A stretch of 64,000 nt of DNA from an uncultured archaeon (GTDB lineage: Archaea; Asgardarchaeota; Lokiarchaeia; Sigyniarchaeales; SOKP01), in contig CAZALK010000014.1 in the NCBI GenBank assembly GCA_964486045.1, forward strand, positions 1 through 64,000, read 5' to 3'. Shown piece by piece: positions 1 to 13,814 of this stretch. How positions within the stretch are numbered: the stretch's first letter is position 1; every line of letters begins with the position of its first letter. A model generated the notes under the pieces. The model had not been told where the DNA came from. It did not search any database and saw only the letters and a list, made by a program, of their open reading frames with translations. Position numbers and translations under genes: made by a program.

Positions 1-258
1 AGAGTGTTATTGGATTAGCAATAATCTTTTATTTAGTTATAATAATATATTCAAAAAACCACATTTTATATCTTCAATACCAGATACAAGTACACTAAGA
101 GGGCAAAATCTTTAACACTGCTTTTTCTCCCAAATAAGACAAAAAGAATAACAACAGAGACAATTATTAAATGAAAAAATCTGAAAATAGAAAAGAATAC
201 GTATATAATTATTATAGAGGATAATAATTCTTATCAAAGTGAAATGGATTAGAAGACT

Positions 259-1281
259 ATGAGCGAAACCATTATAAAACTAGAAAATTTAAGCAGGAAA
301 TACGGTAATTTTACAGCCTTGGATACTGTAAGTTTTTCAGTTCAAAAAGGTGAAATTATCGGATTAGTGGGGCCAAATGGAGCAGGAAAGACTACACTGC
401 TTAAACTAATAGCTCGCTTGATTAGACCAAATTCCGGAACCATTTTTATTAAAAATATTGATTGTCAATTACAGAACATTCATAAAAATTCAAAAAATTT
501 AATCGAAATGGGATTTTTAATCGATATTCCTCACTTTTATAACACAACCCCGTATTGTTTATTAAGACATATTGCTAACATTAGGAATTACCCAAGGAAT
601 AAAATAAAACTTAGAATTGATAAGCTTTTAAAATCCTTGGATTTATATGATTGGAAATTTAAGAAGTTAAAAACATTTTCAAAAGGAATGATCCAGAAAT
701 TGGGTTTTATGATTGCGATAATTCACGACCCAGAACTAATTATTCTTGATGAGCCTCAAACAGGCTTAGATACAAATGCTCGTATAAAAATAAGAGAACA
801 TCTAAAATCTCTTCAAAATGAGGGGAAAACCATTCTTTTATCGTCCCATTTATTAACTGAGCTAAGAGAAGTATGTGATAAGATTGCTCTAATAAATCAA
901 GGTGTTTTGATTGGATTTGATACAATTGATAATTTGGAGCGGGATTTCAAAACTAAGGAGTTAATTTGTGAAATTATTAATCCAATTCCTAAAGAAAGGG
1001 TAAAGGATTTAATTCTAAGATTGATTCATCAATTAAAACCATTTTTGGAAGCAAAAATGGACCACTCAAATTTTGATGGTTCGATCACTTATAATAACCA
1101 GAAAAAAATTTTTACAATATGCTACGATGGTAAACAAACTTCAAGAAGTGAAATTTTAAACATTTTGTCTACTGAATTCAAATCCGATTTGACCGTAAGT
1201 TCTTTTTACGAACCAAAGATCTCTCAATTAGAAAGCCTATATTATCAAATGATAGAAAAAAATCCTAAAAAACTAAAATGA
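259..1281 (+). CDS. ABC transporter ATP-binding protein (ABC-2/multidrug-type exporter)
   Basis: Walker A GPNGAGKT, signature FSKGM, Walker B IILDEP, H-loop SSH. Confidence 0.95.
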   Translation: MSETIIKLENLSRKYGNFTALDTVSFSVQKGEIIGLVGPNGAGKTTLLKLIARLIRPNSGTIFIKNIDCQLQNIHKNSKNLIEMGFLIDIPHFYNTTPYCLLRHIANIRNYPRNKIKLRIDKLLKSLDLYDWKFKKLKTFSKGMIQKLGFMIAIIHDPELIILDEPQTGLDTNARIKIREHLKSLQNEGKTILLSSHLLTELREVCDKIALINQGVLIGFDTIDNLERDFKTKELICEIINPIPKERVKDLILRLIHQLKPFLEAKMDHSNFDGSITYNNQKKIFTICYDGKQTSRSEILNILSTEFKSDLTVSSFYEPKISQLESLYYQMIEKNPKKLK

Positions 1282-1302
1282 GATTAAATGAGGTTACAAT
1301 AA

Positions 1303-2127
1303 GTGAAAAAATTAGATAATCTATCTGTAAATCTTAAAGTGGTTTCACACACGATATTATTTGAAATAAAACTCCAAAAAAAGAAATTTATTATGTTTTC
1401 AATTATAACGTTTATTTTTTTCTTGTTAAATAGTATAATTCCTTATGTTTTTATCACAAATATGCCCTTACCCAATTCCCAATTTGATTTATATCACGAT
1501 GGAATCGTAATTTTTATGACGATTCTATTCTTAACTACGGTGTTCTTTTTTTCAGGTATTATTTGTACTGAATATAAAAAGAAAACGGGTTTAACGTTGC
1601 TTCCTTTAATTGATAAGCATAATTTAATTATAGGGAAATATATAGCAAATTTTATATTAGTTATAGGAATTGCGGCTATTCAATACTTTCTAATGGCGCT
1701 TTTAAGTTTTTATTTTTATGCTGAGCCCATACCTCCTTCATTTTTTCTTAGTTTTGGATATCTTGCTCTATACATCCTAGCATTAGCTAGCGTTACAACA
1801 TTTCTAAGCTCTTTTATGCCTTCAGCAGGTCCAGTGATTGTAATTATTATTGGCCTCATCTTATTTGGGTTTACAACAATCGATAATTTTGTTAGACCTA
1901 CCAATATAGAGCCACTTTACTCGTTAACTTACTTTTACAATATGATTAGTAATATAATTTATCCTGAGTTCTCCACTATGGAAAGATATAGTGAATATAC
2001 TCAAGATAATATTCTTCATCGATTTTGGAGGTTCCCGTCTGCAGAAGGAGCATTAATAGTTTTAACATTATATACAATTGTTTTTTTCCTATTAGGATAT
2101 TTATTATTTAAAAGAAGGCAATTATAA
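1303..2127 (+). CDS. ABC-2 type transporter permease
   Basis: About 6 TM segments, 'E..KKTG..LL..P....LIIGKY' ABC-2 pattern, directly after the ATPase. Confidence 0.85.
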   Translation: MKKLDNLSVNLKVVSHTILFEIKLQKKKFIMFSIITFIFFLLNSIIPYVFITNMPLPNSQFDLYHDGIVIFMTILFLTTVFFFSGIICTEYKKKTGLTLLPLIDKHNLIIGKYIANFILVIGIAAIQYFLMALLSFYFYAEPIPPSFFLSFGYLALYILALASVTTFLSSFMPSAGPVIVIIIGLILFGFTTIDNFVRPTNIEPLYSLTYFYNMISNIIYPEFSTMERYSEYTQDNILHRFWRFPSAEGALIVLTLYTIVFFLLGYLLFKRRQL

Positions 2128-2179
2128 GATAATTTCAATAAGATTTAGAAAAATACGATGAAAAAAAAATAATAATGTT

Positions 2180-3199
2180 TTGAAAATGTTAAATATTAAA
2201 AAAAAAAAAAAATTAAAACTTATAGTACTCGTGTTTTTAGGCATTTTTATAACAAATTATGAATTTTATCCGTTGGTTTCATCAAGTTCTAATTACACCT
2301 TATCTTTAGATAAGGGATCTCAGATTTTTGAGGTGTCGTATTACGATAAAGAAGCATGGAAAGATATTATTAATGATTCTTCAAATCCTACAGATTGGTT
2401 TAGTGGTGAATCAGATACAATTGGAGCTAAAAGTAAAGCTACTGTATTAGGAGTACATGATGGTGGTAGTAGTACATTAGGCATGTTTGGGATGCTTTTT
2501 TTTTCCTGGTTCGAAGTAAATAGCTCGATTCTTTGGCAATATGGATATTATAAATCTTTTATTGATAGTAATTATCCAAATAATTATAATCTATGGAGAC
2601 CTTTTTTAACATTCTGGCCTTTTGGAACTGAACCATTTGATAATTATCATAATTCTTTTCACTCTATGCCTTTTCTTTTTCGAGAGCCCTTCGATTTTCA
2701 AAGCATTTTAAACAATTATATCGATTTTGCTGCTGTTGTTAATAATGATACCGCTTTGCAAGCATTAAATTTTTCCATACCAATCTTTAGTGGAGATGAT
2801 TTTTTATGGCGCTTTATTTTGGAAAATTATGTGATGGTTTATCCAATTAAAAATTATCTTACTGAAGTTATTAACGCACTTGAATGCGAAAATGTGACTG
2901 TTCAGGATAATAAAATCAAATTTAGGAGATTTGGAGAAAAACCCTACATAACGGAATTTACTTATAATTCCCAAGGATTATTGGATACCGTTGTTGTTAA
3001 AAATAATGATGATAGCTTAATCTATAAAATTACAAGTAGTAATCTAAAATTTGTGGTATACATCATCATTGGAATTAGCTTAAGCGCGATTTTAGGATTA
3101 ATAGGTCTCAGCTTCTATAGGAAAAGACGGTTAACTCTTCTTCTCAAATCCGATAAAATTAAAAGTGATCATAAAAAAATATTAAATGCAGTAACTTAA
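2180..3199 (+). CDS. Hypothetical membrane-anchored extracellular protein
   Basis: Basic then hydrophobic N-terminus; C-terminal TM followed by RKRR. Confidence 0.7.
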   Translation: MKMLNIKKKKKLKLIVLVFLGIFITNYEFYPLVSSSSNYTLSLDKGSQIFEVSYYDKEAWKDIINDSSNPTDWFSGESDTIGAKSKATVLGVHDGGSSTLGMFGMLFFSWFEVNSSILWQYGYYKSFIDSNYPNNYNLWRPFLTFWPFGTEPFDNYHNSFHSMPFLFREPFDFQSILNNYIDFAAVVNNDTALQALNFSIPIFSGDDFLWRFILENYVMVYPIKNYLTEVINALECENVTVQDNKIKFRRFGEKPYITEFTYNSQGLLDTVVVKNNDDSLIYKITSSNLKFVVYIIIGISLSAILGLIGLSFYRKRRLTLLLKSDKIKSDHKKILNAVT

Positions 3200-3347
3200 C
3201 CAAAAACTAACATTTTAGGGTTGTACTTTACAATTTATTTTTATATTGAGATTTTACCAGCTAACATTGACAATTTAATTACCGATCTTTCAGGCACATT
3301 ATTTTTAAAATGCAAGGAATTAAATAATTAAGGCGTATATTATGCAT

Positions 3348-3487
3348 AGACAAAGATTTAAAATCAAATATGATGTTCACTATCCACCCCTGGATTTTTG
3401 TCTTTTGGTAGTGTAACTTGTTACACTTACAATTTCTCACCCTTATATTGGTTTGTCTCTTATTGAGACTCTGGGTAGTGAGCATCA
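3348..3487 (+). ncRNA. Candidate structured RNA/ssDNA element, copy 1
   Basis: 15-bp closing stem 3371-3385/3473-3487 with 2 G-U pairs; inner hairpins GTGTAA-CTTG-TTACAC and GTCTC-TTATT-GAGAC; 3348-3360 also pairs with 3391-3403; homologous to the copy 288 bp downstream. Confidence 0.6.
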
Positions 3488-3635
3488 CCCTTAATATTTT
3501 CAAAGTTAGGGGAATTAAAGACTCAGAATTTTTTAGGAGTTTGTTTGTTTTCAAGAGAGAATTTTTTATTCCAGATGTTTAGTAATTGTTTTTAAAAAAC
3601 AAGCAAATAAATAAGTAAGATATTTTTAGTATAAT

Positions 3636-3779
3636 AGACAAGGATTTACAGCTAACCATGGTGTTCACTGCCTGACCCTGGATTTTTGTCTTTTGGTAGT
3701 ATGGTTTTCCATACGCTAATTTAATCTCACCCTTTGTATTGGCTTAGTCTCCTCTTGAGACTCTGGGCGAGGATCACCA
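3636..3779 (+). ncRNA. Candidate structured RNA/ssDNA element, copy 2
   Basis: Shares an identical 25-mer CCCTGGATTTTTGTCTTTTGGTAGT with copy 1; compensatory stems GTATGG-TTTT-CCATAC, AGTCTC-CTCTT-GAGACT and TGGTG/CACCA. Confidence 0.6.
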
Positions 3780-3907
3780 CCTTTCTGCCTTTTACGAGTA
3801 ATTAAATTAATCAAGGGGTGAAAAGAGAAAAGGTAAAAAAAAAGGAAGATATTAGTGAAGGTTTTTCCTTTTCCACTTTTTTAGATGGGCTTTAAACATA
3901 GAATTAT

Positions 3908-3977
3908 CAATCCCTAAGGAGTTTACGTTATTATTAGGTAACTTGTTACCATCTGCTCGTTTTGGCCTAAGGGATTG
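3908..3977. repeat. Inverted repeat / stem-loop
   Basis: CAATCCCTAAGG (3908-3919) pairs with CCTAAGGGATTG (3966-3977) with one mismatch and encloses the palindrome GGTAACTTGTTACC (3937-3950). Confidence 0.55.
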
Positions 3978-4093
3978 CTGCCACTCATAATACGATTTTG
4001 GTCTCCCCATGAAGAAAAACAAAATCGCCCTACAATTAAATTAGGAGACGCCGACAAATTTTAGTAATTAGCACAATGTTAAAAAGATTATAA

Positions 4094-4693
4094 CTTACAT
4101 ACGAGTTTGGTAGATTTCTCGAGTCTTTTAAAGTTGGAAATGTCTTTGATATAACCCAAACCACTGAATACGAGAATTACCTTAAGGAACAAAGCGAAAT
4201 AGACGAAAAAATTATGAAAAATAGTGAAATTGATTATAGTACAGCAATGAATTTTGTTTCAACCAATTTCCCAAAAGTCATAATTAGAGAAGAGTTTAAA
4301 GACCAAGCAAAGAAAGGAAGTTATGATCCTATATCCCTTAAAATAACCTTGAATGAAAAGACTTCTCAAGCCCTTTTTCATGAAATCGGGCACTATTTAA
4401 CCATAGAAGTTTTAAAGATCGCGGGAGATATCATAAAAGAATACGCAAAAAACGAAGTTCTAGCCGAACTAACCAGCTACCAACTTCTTAAGAAATTCGA
4501 TGAAACCCTTTCCTACAATTTTGCTTATAGCAATGTGTGGGCTGACAAAATAACAGAACTTTTTGAACTAGACGAGTTTATCAAATGTTATCAAGCCATT
4601 TCTAAATATATTGAGGAAAAATTAGTCTTTAAAACATCTACGGGGATATCTGCAAAACTCATATCTTATATCTCCTCATTTAGTTTTTCTTAA
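4094..4693 (+). pseudogene. 5'-truncated ArdC-like antirestriction protein (end of ssDNA-binding domain plus zincin metallopeptidase-like domain); ATG-started part is 4214-4693
   Basis: HEIGH zincin motif, then 'YAKNEVLAELTSY...FAYSNVW' resembling the ArdC C-domain. The frame is open upstream to a TAA at 4091-4093 and reads FKVGNVFDITQT (ArdC-N-like) without an ATG/GTG/TTG start. Confidence 0.65.
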
Positions 4694-7175: not shown

Positions 7176-8639
7176 TTAATTAAAGTTTGGCTTTTTGACC
7201 TGCCATGGGGCAATTTCTTCAAAAGCTTGGGAAACCTGAAGAACAGAAACCTCATCAAATCTTTTCCCAATTATTTGCATTCCTATAGGAAGTCCCTCAT
7301 TCGACCAACCACAGGGAATTGAAGCAGCAGGGTGACCACTCATATTGAAAGGATGAGTATATGGTGACCAAGCTCCTAATGAAACCGTTTTTCCATCAAT
7401 TTTAGTTGGGGAGGATACACCTAATTCAAAAGCAGGACATGCCATAGTAGGAGTAATTAAAATATCAAATTCTTTAAAATGTTTGCATATATTCTCATAA
7501 ATGATTTCTCTTTGTATTTCTGCGTTATATATATCTTCTGTGGCAAGTTGAAGCCCAAATTGAGCCAACTGAACTAATTCTTGATCTAAAATATCTCCTT
7601 TTTGCTCTATTATCGGTTTTAGGAAATGTCCAATTCCATATGCCCATAATGTATACCATGTCAAGCTATAATTATTTACATTCACTTGTCCTCTGAGTGT
7701 TTTTCCATTTGATAATAAATTAATGTTACTTTTTTCAACTGACCAATTAAATTCTTCAAATTTTTTCACAGCATCTAATACTGATTTTTCTACTTCAGAA
7801 TGAATAGTTTCTAATCCACCCAAATCTATTGCATATCCTATTTTCAGTTTCTTAGGTGTTTCTTCTAAAGCATTATAGAAACTATAATTTGGCTTTGGTA
7901 AAGAATATCTGTCAATATCATCAGCTCCAACTAAGGCATCAAGCATTAGAGCAGCATCTTTTACATATCTAACTAAAGGTCCCTTTTGAACGTACGTGCC
8001 CATATTACCTTCTATTTTCATTGAAGTTTGTGGTATGCGCCCAAAAGTTGGTTTGATACCATATAAACCACAAAAACTACTTGGAATACGAATAGAACCT
8101 CCTCCATCCGAACCTTGCGTTAAAGGACTTAAACCAGAAGCCGTTGCTGCTGCCCCCCCTCCAGTAGATCCTCCCGTAGTTCTTTCTAAATGCCATGGAT
8201 TTTTTGTTTCACCAAAAATTAAATTTACAGTTACCCCCTTGTACCCAAATGCAGGCATATTTGTTTTTCCTAAAATCACCGCACCCGCTTCTTTCAACCT
8301 TTTGACGGCGATATCATCGTTGGGTGAGATATAGTTTTCAAATGCTTTACTGCCACAAGTAGTTCTAATTCCTTCAATATCAACATTATCTTTGATAGAA
8401 GTCGGGATACCATGTAATAGTCCTAATTTTTCACCCTTTTTAACAGTAGTATCAGCTATTTTTGCCAAATCTCTAGCTAAATCGAATGTAGTAGTACAGT
8501 AGGCATTAATTATTGGATTTATCTTTTCAATTCTTTCAATTATTATTTCAGTAATTTCTTGCGATGATATTTCTTGATTTATAATCTTCTCTTTCATTTC
8601 CCACGCAGGCATAAAACATATATCTTCTCTCTTCATCAT
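7176..8639 (-). CDS. Amidase signature family protein
   Basis: IKD, GKTN, GGSTGG, GSDGGGSIRIP. Confidence 0.93.
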   Translation of the reverse strand: MMKREDICFMPAWEMKEKIINQEISSQEITEIIIERIEKINPIINAYCTTTFDLARDLAKIADTTVKKGEKLGLLHGIPTSIKDNVDIEGIRTTCGSKAFENYISPNDDIAVKRLKEAGAVILGKTNMPAFGYKGVTVNLIFGETKNPWHLERTTGGSTGGGAAATASGLSPLTQGSDGGGSIRIPSSFCGLYGIKPTFGRIPQTSMKIEGNMGTYVQKGPLVRYVKDAALMLDALVGADDIDRYSLPKPNYSFYNALEETPKKLKIGYAIDLGGLETIHSEVEKSVLDAVKKFEEFNWSVEKSNINLLSNGKTLRGQVNVNNYSLTWYTLWAYGIGHFLKPIIEQKGDILDQELVQLAQFGLQLATEDIYNAEIQREIIYENICKHFKEFDILITPTMACPAFELGVSSPTKIDGKTVSLGAWSPYTHPFNMSGHPAASIPCGWSNEGLPIGMQIIGKRFDEVSVLQVSQAFEEIAPWQVKKPNFN

Positions 8640-8677: not shown

Positions 8678-10096
8678 TTAATTAAAATTAGGCTTTCTAT
8701 CCTGCCATGGGGCAATTTCTTCGAAGGCCTTTGAAACTTGTAGAATTAATAATTCCTGAAATCGCTTACCAACTATCTGCATACCAATAGGTAAGTTATC
8801 ACTTGTCCATCCACAGGGAATAGAAGCAGCAGGATGCCCCGTAAAATTAAAAGGAAATGTAAACGGTTGCCAATCTGTTGCTCTTACACTAACTCCATTT
8901 ATTTTTTGAGGTGCAGCAATTCCTAATTCAAAAGCAGGTACGGCTGTCGTTGGGGTTACAAGTATATCATAATCTTTAAAAGTCTCATAAACAGATTCAT
9001 AAAATTCAGCTCGAGTTTTCATAGCGAGTGGTAAGCTTGAAGCTGGGAATTGTAATCCTGCTTTGACCCAAGTTAGGAGGGTAGGATCAAGTTTATCTTT
9101 CCAATCATCTAAGTATGGCTGGATTTCATGTCCAAAAGCGACTAACCAATGAGTGCTAAAAGCAAGTGAAGGATCAATTCCTTTAAATTTTGCTTCTTCC
9201 ACACTCCATCCAAGAGTTTCAAATTTTTGAACAGACTTTAATACAGATTTTTCTACTTCAGAATCTATGACATTAGCAAACCCTAAATCTAAGCTATAGC
9301 CAATTTTTAATTTTCTTGGTCTTTCATTTATGTGCTCGAAATAATTGACTTTTTCTTCAGGTAGTGAAAATCTATCACTTTCAGACGGTCCCTTGATTAC
9401 ATCTAGCATTAATGCAGCGTCTGACACATATCTTACAATAGGACCTATAACCGAGAGACCTAAATTAATTTTAAATACTCCTGAATCACGAGGAACCCTT
9501 CCAAATGAAGGTTTTAAACCATATGTTCCACAAAAGCCAGCGGGATGTCGAATAGATCCTCCTCCATCTGATCCTTGAGCTAATGGTCCCATTCCAGAAG
9601 CAACTGAAGCTGCTGCTCCTCCACTAGAACCTCCCGATGTTTTCTCAAGATTCCAAGGATTTGGTGTCACTCCAAATATTTGATTATCGGTTACTCCTTT
9701 GAATCCAAATTCCGGAGTATTCGTCTTTCCTAAAATTACACAACCTGCATTTTTTAAACGTGTAACTGTGATACTGTCTTCATCAGGAATGTTATTCTCA
9801 AATATTTTTGATCCATAAGTAGTTCTTACTCCTTTCACTGCCATTAAATCTTTTATAGAAGTTGGAATCCCATTTAAAGGAGGGATTTTCTCATTTTTTC
9901 TCACTCTAACATCAGCTTTTTTTGCCATTTCCCTTGCTAAGTCAAAAGTGGGAGTACAATAAGCATTGATTATCGGATTTAACCTCTTAATTCTTTCAAT
10001 GAGAACCTCAGTAATTTCTTGTGAAGTCAATTCTTGTGTTTTAATTTTCTCTGCCATTTCCCAAGCGGGCATGAAACAAACATCATTTTCTACCAT
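8678..10096 (-). CDS. Amidase signature family protein (tandem paralogue)
   Basis: IKD, GKTNTPEF, GGSSGG, GSDGGGSIRHP. Confidence 0.93.
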   Translation of the reverse strand: MVENDVCFMPAWEMAEKIKTQELTSQEITEVLIERIKRLNPIINAYCTPTFDLAREMAKKADVRVRKNEKIPPLNGIPTSIKDLMAVKGVRTTYGSKIFENNIPDEDSITVTRLKNAGCVILGKTNTPEFGFKGVTDNQIFGVTPNPWNLEKTSGGSSGGAAASVASGMGPLAQGSDGGGSIRHPAGFCGTYGLKPSFGRVPRDSGVFKINLGLSVIGPIVRYVSDAALMLDVIKGPSESDRFSLPEEKVNYFEHINERPRKLKIGYSLDLGFANVIDSEVEKSVLKSVQKFETLGWSVEEAKFKGIDPSLAFSTHWLVAFGHEIQPYLDDWKDKLDPTLLTWVKAGLQFPASSLPLAMKTRAEFYESVYETFKDYDILVTPTTAVPAFELGIAAPQKINGVSVRATDWQPFTFPFNFTGHPAASIPCGWTSDNLPIGMQIVGKRFQELLILQVSKAFEEIAPWQDRKPNFN

Positions 10097-10327: not shown

Positions 10328-10630
10328 ATGTGTGAATTTAAGATTATAAAAAGAAATGATGGTTCTCAGATAATGGAAGAAATCGTTATGTTATCTTATA
10401 ATGAAAATAGTGGGTTGGTTTTAAGAGATGTAATTGGGATGGGAGAAATTCTTGACTCTGCCCTAATATTAGATGTAAATACAATGAATCAAAAATGTGA
10501 AATTCTTGAGAATCCTATTATAAAAGATTTTATTAGTTTAATTACTAAAATAAATGTTAATCAAGTAAATAGAATCGATTTTGACAATTTTATTTGTAAG
10601 TTAGAAGAATTGAAAGAAGAACTCGAATAA
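10328..10630 (+). CDS. CooT-family nickel-binding protein with C-terminal extension
   Basis: MCE N-terminus, IMEE and L.DV.G pattern. Confidence 0.65.
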   Translation: MCEFKIIKRNDGSQIMEEIVMLSYNENSGLVLRDVIGMGEILDSALILDVNTMNQKCEILENPIIKDFISLITKINVNQVNRIDFDNFICKLEELKEELE

Positions 10631-11726: not shown

Positions 11727-13814
11727 TTGATGCCAGTTAAAATCACTGATTTTACAAAGAAAAGTCTCGGAAGATTACTAAAAAAGGATTTAGTCAAATC
11801 TCCCAGTTTAAAAATTATTTTTAAATCAATTAACCAGCACTTATATGGGAAATTAAAGTATACTGATACAGATACTAGAGCACGTTCAAAGCAAATTATA
11901 AATCTTTTGTTATGTAAGTTAGTTGACGAAATTTCTAAGAAACCTGAAGAGGAAGTTGAAGTTTACACTAAGGAAGGCGAATCTCCTAAAGAATTGCTTG
12001 AGAGAATTCAATTATTTTTTGATAATAACGTTAGAGATAAATACAAAGATATAATTGATGAAGATGAACGTATCACCTTAACTAAGGATCTCATTTACTT
12101 AATTATAAGAGATTTAGAAAATATTTCACTTCTACAATCCTCTAAAGATATTTTTAGCGACGCATTTGAGATATTTGTAAGTAAAATATTAAAAGATGAA
12201 GCAGGACAGTTTTTTACACCTCCAAATATAGTCAAATTTATGGTAAATTATTTAGATCCGACAATTGAATCAAAAATTTTAGATCCTGCATGTGGCCATG
12301 GAGGATTTCTTCTTGAAACTAAAGAATTCTTATGGAGAAAATGTGAATCAAAATCTAAAAGAATTAAGATTATTTCTAATTTATTTGGTATTGATAAAGA
12401 CCTGTTCTTAACAAAAATAAGCAGACTATATTTGGATATATTAAGCAATGGAAAATCTAACATTTTTTGTGAAGATTCATTAGATCCAAATAGTTACAGA
12501 GCTCCTGCCATGGAGGCAATAAAAAATGAATCTTTTGATTTTATATTTACTAATCCTCCATTTGGGGTTAAAATTCCTATTAATGAGAGTAGAATATTAG
12601 ATAATTACCAATTAGGTCATGCTTGGAAAAATCAAAATGGTAAATGGGAAACTCAAAACAAGGTGACAAAGCAACAATCCCCTCAAGTTTTATTTATTGA
12701 GAGATGTGTTCAGTTACTTAAAGATGAAGGAAAATTAGGGATTGTTTTACCTGAAGGTATATTTGGTAATCCTTCAGATCGGTATATATGGGAATATCTA
12801 AACTCCAACGGACGAATATTAGGTATAGTTTCATTAGATCAAAATACATTTCAACCTTTCACATGTAATAAGACCAGTATCCTGTTTTTTCAGAAGTTAA
12901 AGACGATTCCAGCTGATTATCTAATAGATTTCGCCATTGTTGATAATGTAGGTCACGACAAGGATGGAAAGGTTTTGTATCAACTAAATAAAGATGGCAG
13001 TAAAAAATTGGATTCTAAGGAGAACCCGATTATTTTTGATGAATTAACAGAGCTTCACAAAAAACTCAGGGATGCAGAAGGATTTAATTATTTAAATGAC
13101 CAAAAAGTTTTTAACATTAAATTCAGCCAGATTAAAAACAATGTTTTTATCCCCCCTTATTATACAGGAGTGGAAAAAATCCTTAAGAAATTATCAATTA
13201 ATGAGAAGTTTAATCTATTAAGTATAAAAGAACTTACAGAAAAGGAGATTATTTATACTAATAAAGGAGGTTACTTACCAAGAGGATCTGAAATTGGATC
13301 TCATGTGTATGGTTTGGGAGATATTCCATTTATTCGAACTAGCGAAATTAACAATTGGGAAGTCAATTTAGATTCCTATAAAAAAACAAGCCAAGAGGTA
13401 TATGAACAATATAAAGATAAGCAAAATATTGAATCGGATGATATTCTCTTGGTTAAGGATGGTGGACCAAATCTTATTGGAAAAACAGCTTATATAACTA
13501 AACTAGATACTAAAATAATAATTCAAAGCCATATATTTCAAATAAAAACCTTAGTAAATGAAGAGTCGATTGATTCTTATCTCATATTATATCTATTAAA
13601 TCTAGACCTTGTACAAAAGCAAATTCAAACATTTACTTTTATTCAAGGAACTATTGCTACAATAGGAAATCGCATAATGGAACTAACTTTACCTTTTCCT
13701 TCTGATTTTTCTAAAAGGAAAGAAATTTCAAAAACAATAAAACAAATTATTGATAGTAAAACAGAAACACGAATAAAAATAAAGAGTCTCTCTCTAGATT
13801 CTCATATTTATTGA
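11727..13814 (+). CDS. N6-adenine DNA methyltransferase (HsdM-like) fused to a single HsdS-like specificity domain
   Basis: GQFFTP, DPACGHGGFL, NPPF; the C-terminal region (IPFIRTSEI, DILLVKDG) resembles a TRD. Confidence 0.88.
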   Translation: MMPVKITDFTKKSLGRLLKKDLVKSPSLKIIFKSINQHLYGKLKYTDTDTRARSKQIINLLLCKLVDEISKKPEEEVEVYTKEGESPKELLERIQLFFDNNVRDKYKDIIDEDERITLTKDLIYLIIRDLENISLLQSSKDIFSDAFEIFVSKILKDEAGQFFTPPNIVKFMVNYLDPTIESKILDPACGHGGFLLETKEFLWRKCESKSKRIKIISNLFGIDKDLFLTKISRLYLDILSNGKSNIFCEDSLDPNSYRAPAMEAIKNESFDFIFTNPPFGVKIPINESRILDNYQLGHAWKNQNGKWETQNKVTKQQSPQVLFIERCVQLLKDEGKLGIVLPEGIFGNPSDRYIWEYLNSNGRILGIVSLDQNTFQPFTCNKTSILFFQKLKTIPADYLIDFAIVDNVGHDKDGKVLYQLNKDGSKKLDSKENPIIFDELTELHKKLRDAEGFNYLNDQKVFNIKFSQIKNNVFIPPYYTGVEKILKKLSINEKFNLLSIKELTEKEIIYTNKGGYLPRGSEIGSHVYGLGDIPFIRTSEINNWEVNLDSYKKTSQEVYEQYKDKQNIESDDILLVKDGGPNLIGKTAYITKLDTKIIIQSHIFQIKTLVNEESIDSYLILYLLNLDLVQKQIQTFTFIQGTIATIGNRIMELTLPFPSDFSKRKEISKTIKQIIDSKTETRIKIKSLSLDSHIY

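Follow-up and report, generated by a model that had tools for sequence, protein, structure and literature searches.

Tandem copies of a structured element in a Lokiarchaeia genome, very probably genes of an undescribed small RNA

Introduction

Asgard archaea are the closest prokaryotic relatives of eukaryotes, and to our knowledge very few structured noncoding RNAs from them have been described. Several systems from other organisms offer points of comparison for such RNAs. The Sm-class RNAs, comprising the U1, U2, U4, U5 and U7 snRNAs and the U-rich RNAs bound by SmAP or Hfq, carry a single-stranded RAUUUUUG-type run between helices with a hairpin close after it. Qrr1–5 of Vibrio are sibling regulatory RNAs encoded by separately promoted paralogues, and they share a ~30-nt absolutely conserved single strand. 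OLE, ROOL, GOLLD and raiA, which are orphans of Rfam, are known from covariation-backed structure and lineage-wide conservation, and they have no fixed partner gene.

The window considered here is a stretch of 64,000 nt, positions 1–64000 of contig C14 in a Lokiarchaeia genome of 5.18 Mb in 45 contigs (99% complete, contamination 7.8%). It contains two copies of an element that resembles each of these systems in part. Like the Sm-class RNAs, the RNA has a U-rich single strand of the same type between helices and a hairpin close by, and it contains a 7-mer, UUUGUCU, that presumably also occurs in the U7 Sm site; however, its invariant block of ~25–30 nt is far longer than an Sm site, it has no homology to the Rfam snRNA models, and in the subfamily of the window its leader can sequester the site. 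The likeness to Qrr1–5 lies in paralogous genes, some of them in tandem, with an invariant single-stranded stretch and diverged stems and flanks, whereas the domain of life and the fold differ and no target with conserved complementarity was found. With OLE, ROOL, GOLLD and raiA it shares the kind of evidence by which it is recognized and the lack of a fixed partner gene, but it is much smaller, multi-copy and confined to one archaeal family, and it matches none of them. The two copies are very probably neighboring genes, each with a promoter of its own, for a small structured RNA that is undescribed and characteristic of one Lokiarchaeia family; this confidence concerns what the RNA genes are and how they are built, and not their mechanism. 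The RNA is new in the limited sense that no known RNA family or class can be assigned to it; its mechanism is not known to be new.

Organization of the tandem locus

Positions 3346–3500 and 3634–3793 of the plus strand are diverged copies of one element with 74% identity, and both reading of the sequence and a repeat search place their starts 288 nt apart in direct orientation. An exact 25-mer is common to both copies (3388–3412 and 3676–3700); with three mismatches allowed, none of 100 shuffles of the window contained any match to it. A second shared block, TCTCACCCTT, lies at 3435–3444 in copy 1 and 3725–3734 in copy 2. The stems differ between copies in a compensatory manner: hairpin P2 is formed by GTGTAA/TTACAC in copy 1 (3411–3416/3421–3426) and by GTATGG/CCATAC in copy 2 (3699–3704/3709–3714), and the closing stem P1 begins with TGATG...CATCA in copy 1 versus TGGTG...CACCA in copy 2. 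A 13-mer, AGACAARGATTTA, at 3348–3360 and 3636–3648 ends exactly 10 nt 5' of the closing stem and can pair at all 13 positions, by Watson-Crick or G-U pairs only, with TGGATTTTTGTCT (3391–3403 and 3679–3691), which lies within the 25-mer. The sequence features named in a preliminary description were all recovered, its helices at the places given there. With leader and tail counted, however, a unit measures ~145–160 nt and not the ~140 nt of that description. The features are listed below with scores from two covariance models, R1, built from seven copies of the window's subgroup, and R2, built from 102 homologues.

3280–4131, plus strand: duplicated module, comprising both RNA genes and ~350 nt downstream
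3298–3345, plus strand: promoter-like upstream block of copy 1, AT-rich, ~45 nt, with purine-rich CAAGGAA followed by TTAAATAA at 3320–3327
3346–3500, plus strand: RNA gene copy 1, 180.6 bits (R1), 140 bits (R2), helix columns from alignment A5
3346–3370, plus strand: copy 1 leader, with the 5' strand of helix P0 at 3348–3360
3371–3385 and 3473–3487, plus strand: copy 1 P1, 5' and 3' strands
3386–3410, plus strand: copy 1 invariant junction J1/2, with the 3' strand of P0 at 3391–3403
3411–3426, plus strand: copy 1 P2 hairpin
3427–3454, plus strand: copy 1 junction J2/3
3455–3469, plus strand: copy 1 P3 hairpin
to 3500, plus strand: copy 1 tail, ACCC and then a U run
3585–3633, plus strand: promoter-like upstream block of copy 2, with TAAATAAG at 3608–3615
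3634–3793, plus strand: RNA gene copy 2, 149.6 bits (R1), 119.3 bits (R2)
3636–3648 and 3679–3691, plus strand: copy 2 P0, 5' and 3' strands
3659–3673 and 3765–3779, plus strand: copy 2 P1, 5' and 3' strands
3674–3698, plus strand: copy 2 invariant junction
3699–3714 and 3747–3761, plus strand: copy 2 P2 and P3 hairpins
to 3793, plus strand: copy 2 tail, CCTTTCTGCCTTTT

Each gene is preceded by its own promoter-like block. In copy 1 TTAAATAA lies ~24–27 nt 5' of a conserved start, [AG]TAGA, at 3346, and alignment shows that the block is kept in copy 2 and in the genome's remaining group A and group B copies; repeat search and alignment give the copy 2 block 83% identity to 3298–3345 over 35 nt. 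Judged by known archaeal promoter architecture, these blocks would be BRE/TATA promoters. Because a quick EM motif search gave scattered positions, the promoter assignment is kept as provisional. The TATA-like box would start transcription near 3346 and 3634, and the short U run would end it; the start, the end and even the expression of the RNA are thus presumed from sequence. A run of four or more T follows the RNA in 56% of homologues versus 33% of control sites.

Copy 1 has a predicted folding energy of −42.8 kcal/mol (z −5.4 relative to shuffles). The value for copy 2 is −38.8 kcal/mol (z −1.6), with three mismatches among the 15 pairs of P1, and this weakened closing stem could reflect decay. 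A covariance model search with filters off found no third, degenerate copy in 3780–4200. Within that interval, at 3908–3977, a 12-nt inverted repeat, CAATCCCTAAGG/CCTAAGGGATTG, surrounds a palindrome, GGTAACTTGTTACC, whose central 12-mer is identical to the P2 hairpin of copy 1 (3413–3424); it lies in the part of the module that is duplicated at 149.5 kb of the same contig, and the covariance model finds no third RNA copy at 3908–3977.

Comparison with known RNA families

The window has no match to Rfam 15, whose 4227 models include ribozymes, riboswitches, snRNAs, sRNAs and tRNA. When both copies, two other subfamilies and the sister-family homologues were searched permissively (E up to 10), only chance-level matches were obtained (E 0.4–8), far under the gathering scores. 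A full-text search of the literature likewise found no description of this RNA family.

The RNA does recall a tRNA in several respects. Its terminal stem is followed by unpaired ACC(C/U), a 5-bp hairpin adjoins the 3' strand of that stem, its UUGGUAG recalls a D-loop, and it belongs to a multi-copy family with external promoters. However, it has only two inner hairpins where a tRNA has three, lacks a T-loop consensus and has a P2 loop of 4–6 nt; ARAGORN predicts 0 tRNA genes in the window, and the Rfam tRNA model has no match there even at E up to 10. A Y RNA was also considered and rejected: the TROVE domain (Ro60), the partner expected of a Y RNA, is absent from this 99%-complete genome, and no part of the RNA varies more than its lower stem, which in a Y RNA would be conserved and bulged. 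An rRNA guide was rejected too: against 16S and 23S rRNA, each taken with flanks of 400 nt, the invariant strand forms no better duplexes than shuffled queries do. A genome-wide complementarity scan returned just G-U-rich chance matches and no convincing target.

Secondary structure and covariation

Comparative alignment shows the predicted fold of the RNA to be a three-way junction with a closing stem P1 of 12–15 bp and hairpins P2 (6 bp) and P3 (5 bp). Enclosed by P1 are, in order, a U-rich strand of ~25 nt that is invariant (CCCUGGAUUUUUGUCUUUUGGUA), P2, a strand rich in pyrimidines (UGAUUUC..CCUCC-like) and P3. Both alignments used to assess this fold were fitted to the model, which inflates the fraction of paired cells in the three nested helices: 94.8% in alignment A7 (102 sequences), compared with 70% when partners are shuffled, and 94.6% in alignment A8, a second sample of 73 sequences drawn by an exact-word scan. 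Double compensatory changes occur at 24 of 26 pairs in A7 and at all 26 in A8. The covariation scores are 0.588 and 0.548, respectively, and the A7 score falls to 0.05–0.11 when the 3' partners are slid by one to three columns. Given the slid-partner controls and the diversity of pair types, the structure is the only reasonable reading, despite the fitting of the alignments.

Non-canonical pairs within the helices are G-U in 114 cases versus A-C in 35, and this excess indicates that the functional molecule corresponds to the plus strand of the window. The single-stranded plus-strand molecule and the new structured noncoding RNA proposed in the preliminary description thus both find support, the latter from very strong covariation in >170 homologues and the lack of an Rfam family.

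Across the subgroups of the genome the core CCCTGGATTTTTGTCTTTTGGTAGTGTAA..TTACAC is unchanged, whereas the closing stem and the 3' hairpin are wholly rewritten with pairing kept; examples of rewritten closing stems are GATGTTCACTATCC/GGGTAGTGAGCATC, GACTCCTACCA/TGGTAGGAGTC and GCCTCCTGCC/GGCAGGAGGC. In at least 12 genera neither the U-rich junction strand nor the P2 stem beside it changes, whereas P1 and P3 covary. Almost all of the invariance falls on the one strand, J1/2, and J2/3 and J3/1 differ between subfamilies.

The element could instead be a cis-acting leader (riboswitch, attenuator or thermometer) or a peptide gene of ~14 codons that starts at a conserved AUG. Of 161 homologues, 127 have an AUG at the opening of P1; in the two ancestral types this codon begins a 14-codon frame ending ...LDFCLLVV, and a radical-SAM gene follows on the same strand in one syntenic locus. 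However, AUG-to-stop frames cross the invariant core in all three phases (75, 25 and 27 cases), 34 homologues have no AUG, the invariant region lacks synonymous variation, and the apparent codon changes are compensated in the 3' strand of P1. A cis-acting leader is further opposed by downstream genes that are unrelated or convergent and by the tandem arrangement of copies. The chances that either of these accounts for the element appear slight indeed.

Leader helix

The 13-bp pairing between leader and junction, helix P0, had been put forward as a pseudoknot or alternative fold. In the subgroup of the window all 13 pairs are formed in each of the seven copies, and the variation is limited to two one-sided changes, both A-to-G opposite U, that keep pairing. 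A double compensatory change is not possible in P0 because its partner strand is invariant, and none occurs. The strands follow one another along the RNA in the order P0 5', P1 5', P0 3', P1 3', and P0 and P1 together would thus constitute an H-type pseudoknot; by our estimate the 10-nt linker should be long enough to span P1.

Support for this helix does not extend to the family as a whole. Group B copies could form an equivalent of 8–10 bp in a shifted register, and nothing like P0 is seen in the two widespread ancestral types. Over 100 homologues the leader pairs with the invariant strand at −8.2 kcal/mol, compared with −6.8 for shuffled leaders and −7.2 for upstream DNA (mean z −0.6), so that family-wide leaders barely exceed shuffled ones. 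P0 is thus a real possibility for this subfamily, but the family is not defined by it. In copies of the window's type the leader can pair through its first 15 nt with the invariant strand over 13 bp; the resulting H-type pseudoknot would cover that strand and mask the junction surface.

Possible function

The U-rich strand and P2 are frozen while P1 and P3 covary, a pattern that points to a molecular partner reading the junction. A trans-acting role, as a small RNP or a regulatory RNA whose junction serves as a platform for protein, for pairing or for both, is tentatively favored, although with appreciably less confidence than the identification of the genes themselves. The invariant single strand would be the working surface, most likely as a platform for a uridine-binding, Sm-like archaeal protein, as a pairing seed, or as both, and the stems would be no more than its scaffold. 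Some 30 nucleotides that never change amid covarying helices, nearly universal in one Lokiarchaeial family, are the mark of a precise molecular partner.

Archaeal SmAP rings bind uridine-rich RNA (PMC12817955). Three Sm-like proteins are encoded in the genome. The invariant GAUUUUUGU lies between P1 and P2 and may be compared with the single-stranded, helix-flanked RAU(4–6)GR site of Sm-class RNAs; its last position is U rather than a purine, it is too short for significance in an AT-rich genome, and in the window's subfamily it is able to pair with the leader. The Sm-like gene that was tested gives no phyletic discrimination because it is present across the whole order, with or without the RNA, and no Sm-like paralogue that tracks the RNA was found. 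A stricter proposal would make the invariant AUUUUUGUCUUUUGG platform the genuine site at which an Sm-like ring assembles, and the RNA a lineage-wide, multi-copy component of an Sm-class small RNP in Asgard archaea, a prokaryotic counterpart of the snRNP core, with access to the site controlled in some subfamilies by a self-masking leader; it is judged unlikely. If the partner is an Sm-like protein, the RNA would bear on the form that Sm RNPs had before the spliceosome.

The same conservation might alternatively mark a catalytic or ligand-sensing RNA, for example a new class of self-cleaving ribozyme or an orphan aptamer, with the invariant junction as its core and the stems as scaffold. Invariant junction nucleotides, freely covarying stems, numerous and partly tandem copies and a possible pseudoknot form a ribozyme-like pattern. 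However, no ribozyme or riboswitch in Rfam 15 matches at E up to 10, the invariance lies nearly all on J1/2 while J2/3 and J3/1 vary between subfamilies, and there is no conserved downstream gene for a switch to control; a catalytic or sensing function is judged unlikely. If the RNA is catalytic or regulatory, it would represent a new class.

Distribution in Asgard archaea

The RNA is nearly universal in one taxonomic family and scarce outside it. Within the genus, 32 of 36 species have a match to R1, with 1–6 copies each. With R2, it is detected in 123 of 131 sampled genomes of the family, representing 12 of its 13 genera, with 1–12 copies; most of these genomes carry only 1–3 copies in conserved syntenic positions. 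R2 also finds it in 2 of 14 genomes of the sister family and in none of 5 from two further families of the order. In a phylum-wide draw searched with model R3, all 25 genomes of the family were positive, compared with 1 weak match among 124 from other families. Hundreds of intergenic loci that are now blank, in genomes of Asgard archaea and in metagenomes from sediment, could be annotated with the covariance model.

Single-contig genomes of the sister family each contain one faint homologue (27–41 bits) with the same three-helix layout:

L368, 1501–1652, minus strand: sister-family homologue
L369, 1501–1654, minus strand: sister-family homologue
L370, 1501–1657, minus strand: sister-family homologue

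These homologues keep AUUUUGUCUUUU(U)GG and UGAUUUC..CCUCC, which are thus the most deeply conserved segments. In L368 and L369, the two that were compared, the RNA is convergent with a frame of ~190 aa, itself preceded by one of ~247 aa; in L368 the two frames encode THUMP-domain and Sua5/YrdC-like proteins, both of tRNA-modification families, and this context is absent from the window's family.

Exact-word searches give a similar picture. A 19-mer of the core occurs in >117 contigs of a species-genome collection, and among the 80 matches listed almost all are from Promethearchaeota (Asgard) or "uncultured archaeon" MAGs; an exact 27-mer occurs in >120 contigs of a metagenome collection. The 19-mer also occurs in four IMG/VR contigs. 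Two of these are coding coincidences within long reading frames and one is weak (23.8 bits); the sole real copy lies at a contig end, and virus-borne copies were rejected as an explanation. That copy (L124, 40–165, minus strand) is full-length and divergent, scores 50 bits and derives from a contig of 224,826 bases catalogued as viral; it lies within ~170 nt of the low-coordinate end of the locus cut from that contig.

Copies within the genome

BLAST and model R1 identify 19 matching places in the genome, corresponding to 18–19 copies: 15 are intact and form about four subgroups, another is a variant whose junction carries an extra hairpin, one is split in two and one is 5'-truncated. The unit of duplication is either a promoter-like block with its gene (200–300 bp) or the whole pair. 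By blastn, a second copy of the paired module lies 146 kb away on the same contig at 148993–149851 (82% identity over 870 nt), and contig C35 carries the pair a third time, in rearranged form.

Several of these copies have unusual structures. On C35 (L011, minus strand) a copy-2-type gene at 13200–13253 and 10395–10516 is split after CCCTG by a 2.7-kb insert that encodes, on the opposite strand, a PadR-family regulator and a HAAS-domain protein of 643 aa; this insert occurs nowhere else in the genome and contains no recombinase. A 5'-truncated copy on C22 (L017, 36664–36773, plus strand) begins before CTGGATTTTTG, at the same position as the 3' half of the split copy, and ~70 nt located 500 nt downstream of it resemble one end of the C35 insert at 77% identity, a likeness that may be the trace of a shared rearrangement. 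The variant on C4 (L021, ~180960–181110, minus strand) has an extra hairpin of ~35 nt in the invariant junction, between CCCCUGGAU and AAUUUUGUCUUUUGG, and an intact closing stem, GGTTCCTGTCAA/TTGGCAGGAACC. Also on C22 (L018, 64492–66766, minus strand), two nearly identical group B genes surround a 403-aa Schlafen/AlbA_2-domain gene. An 893-aa frame upstream of this locus recurs beside another RNA copy on the small contig C37 (98% over 1.66 kb), which could represent a repeated element or strain heterogeneity in the assembly, given its contamination of 7.8%.

Such copies raise the question of whether the element is part of a mobile element, as a MITE-like or IS-end repeat, or a tRNA-like attachment site for Asgard viruses and plasmids. 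Spread of 18–19 copies as gene-sized units, the split copy, the shared start of two 5'-truncated copies before CTGGAT, the truncated ArdC-like gene of a repeated element that abuts the window pair, and the real copy at the end of a 225-kb IMG/VR contig are all compatible with such a role. However, the repeat search found no terminal or flanking inverted repeats, the duplicated unit corresponds to a promoter and its gene, and no transposase, TnpB/IscB, integrase or reverse transcriptase was seen beside any of the ~18 copies. Most genomes have few copies in syntenic positions, the C35 insert is unique and has no recombinase, two of the four matches to viral contigs arise by chance, and a truncated copy in another genome breaks elsewhere than the two same-site truncations here, so that a shared integration site was rejected. 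A mobile or attachment function is therefore considered very unlikely. A guide RNA of TnpB, IscB, IS110 or a retron was rejected as well, there being no such protein beside the copies.

Genomic context

No constant neighbor gene was found for the RNA copies. To one side of the window pair are an ABC-transporter operon and an unknown frame of 339 aa, and to the other are genes for a CO-dehydrogenase epsilon subunit, a membrane protein and two amidases. Other copies in the genome have mutually unrelated neighbors, among them TPR proteins, a solute-binding protein, a radical-SAM enzyme, a Schlafen/AlbA_2 protein, a methyltransferase and a Ras-family GTPase.

Comparison of species reveals two syntenic loci. 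In the first, a radical-SAM gene whose product has an N-terminal zinc ribbon follows the RNA on the same strand, and the copy at C1:51,216–51,362 of the present genome is its orthologue. In the second, the RNA is convergent with a 290-aa frame beside a thioesterase. These loci indicate vertical inheritance as one or two core genes, together with lineage-specific expansions. Synteny yields no partner protein; the divergent neighbor in the ancestral locus is a small membrane protein.

An ArdC-like frame at 4127–4693 (plus strand) follows the pair in the window, and had suggested that the element is a folded ssDNA signal, such as a priming site or hairpin promoter, in a conjugative leading region. 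The restriction of non-Watson-Crick pairs to G-T on one strand is compatible with this. However, positions 4127–4630 correspond only to the C-terminal 168 residues (125–292 of 292; 68% identity), and the ArdcN ssDNA-binding domain (Pfam) is present at three other places in the genome and absent from the window. The leading-region reading is unsupported because the adjacent ArdC-like gene is only this 5'-truncated fragment. Full-length ArdC-like genes on C13 and C19 have no RNA copy beside them, and the element, with a promoter-like box of its own, folds as a three-way junction rather than as one long hairpin. The distribution of the element, in conserved chromosomal loci by housekeeping genes in >100 genomes, already contradicts an ssDNA signal, which is the least probable of the alternatives considered. 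The cut in the ArdC-like gene, at ~4131, coincides with the end of the duplicated ~850-bp module; the pair of RNA genes thus marks a rearrangement scar within a mobile-element gene and does not lie in a functional leading region. Further ArdC-like fragments are present on C5, C1 and C21.

Other parts of the window are also paralogous. The ABC-transporter block at 202–3134 (plus strand), which contains an ATPase, an ABC-2 permease and the unknown 339-aa frame, has a copy on C16 (121355–124294; 87.6% over 2.9 kb), ~8 kb from a further RNA copy (C16:113506–113654). The adjacent amidase-family genes at 7176–8639 and 8678–10096 (minus strand; 487 and 472 aa) are paralogues in tandem, and their first 300 nt are ~71% identical as DNA.
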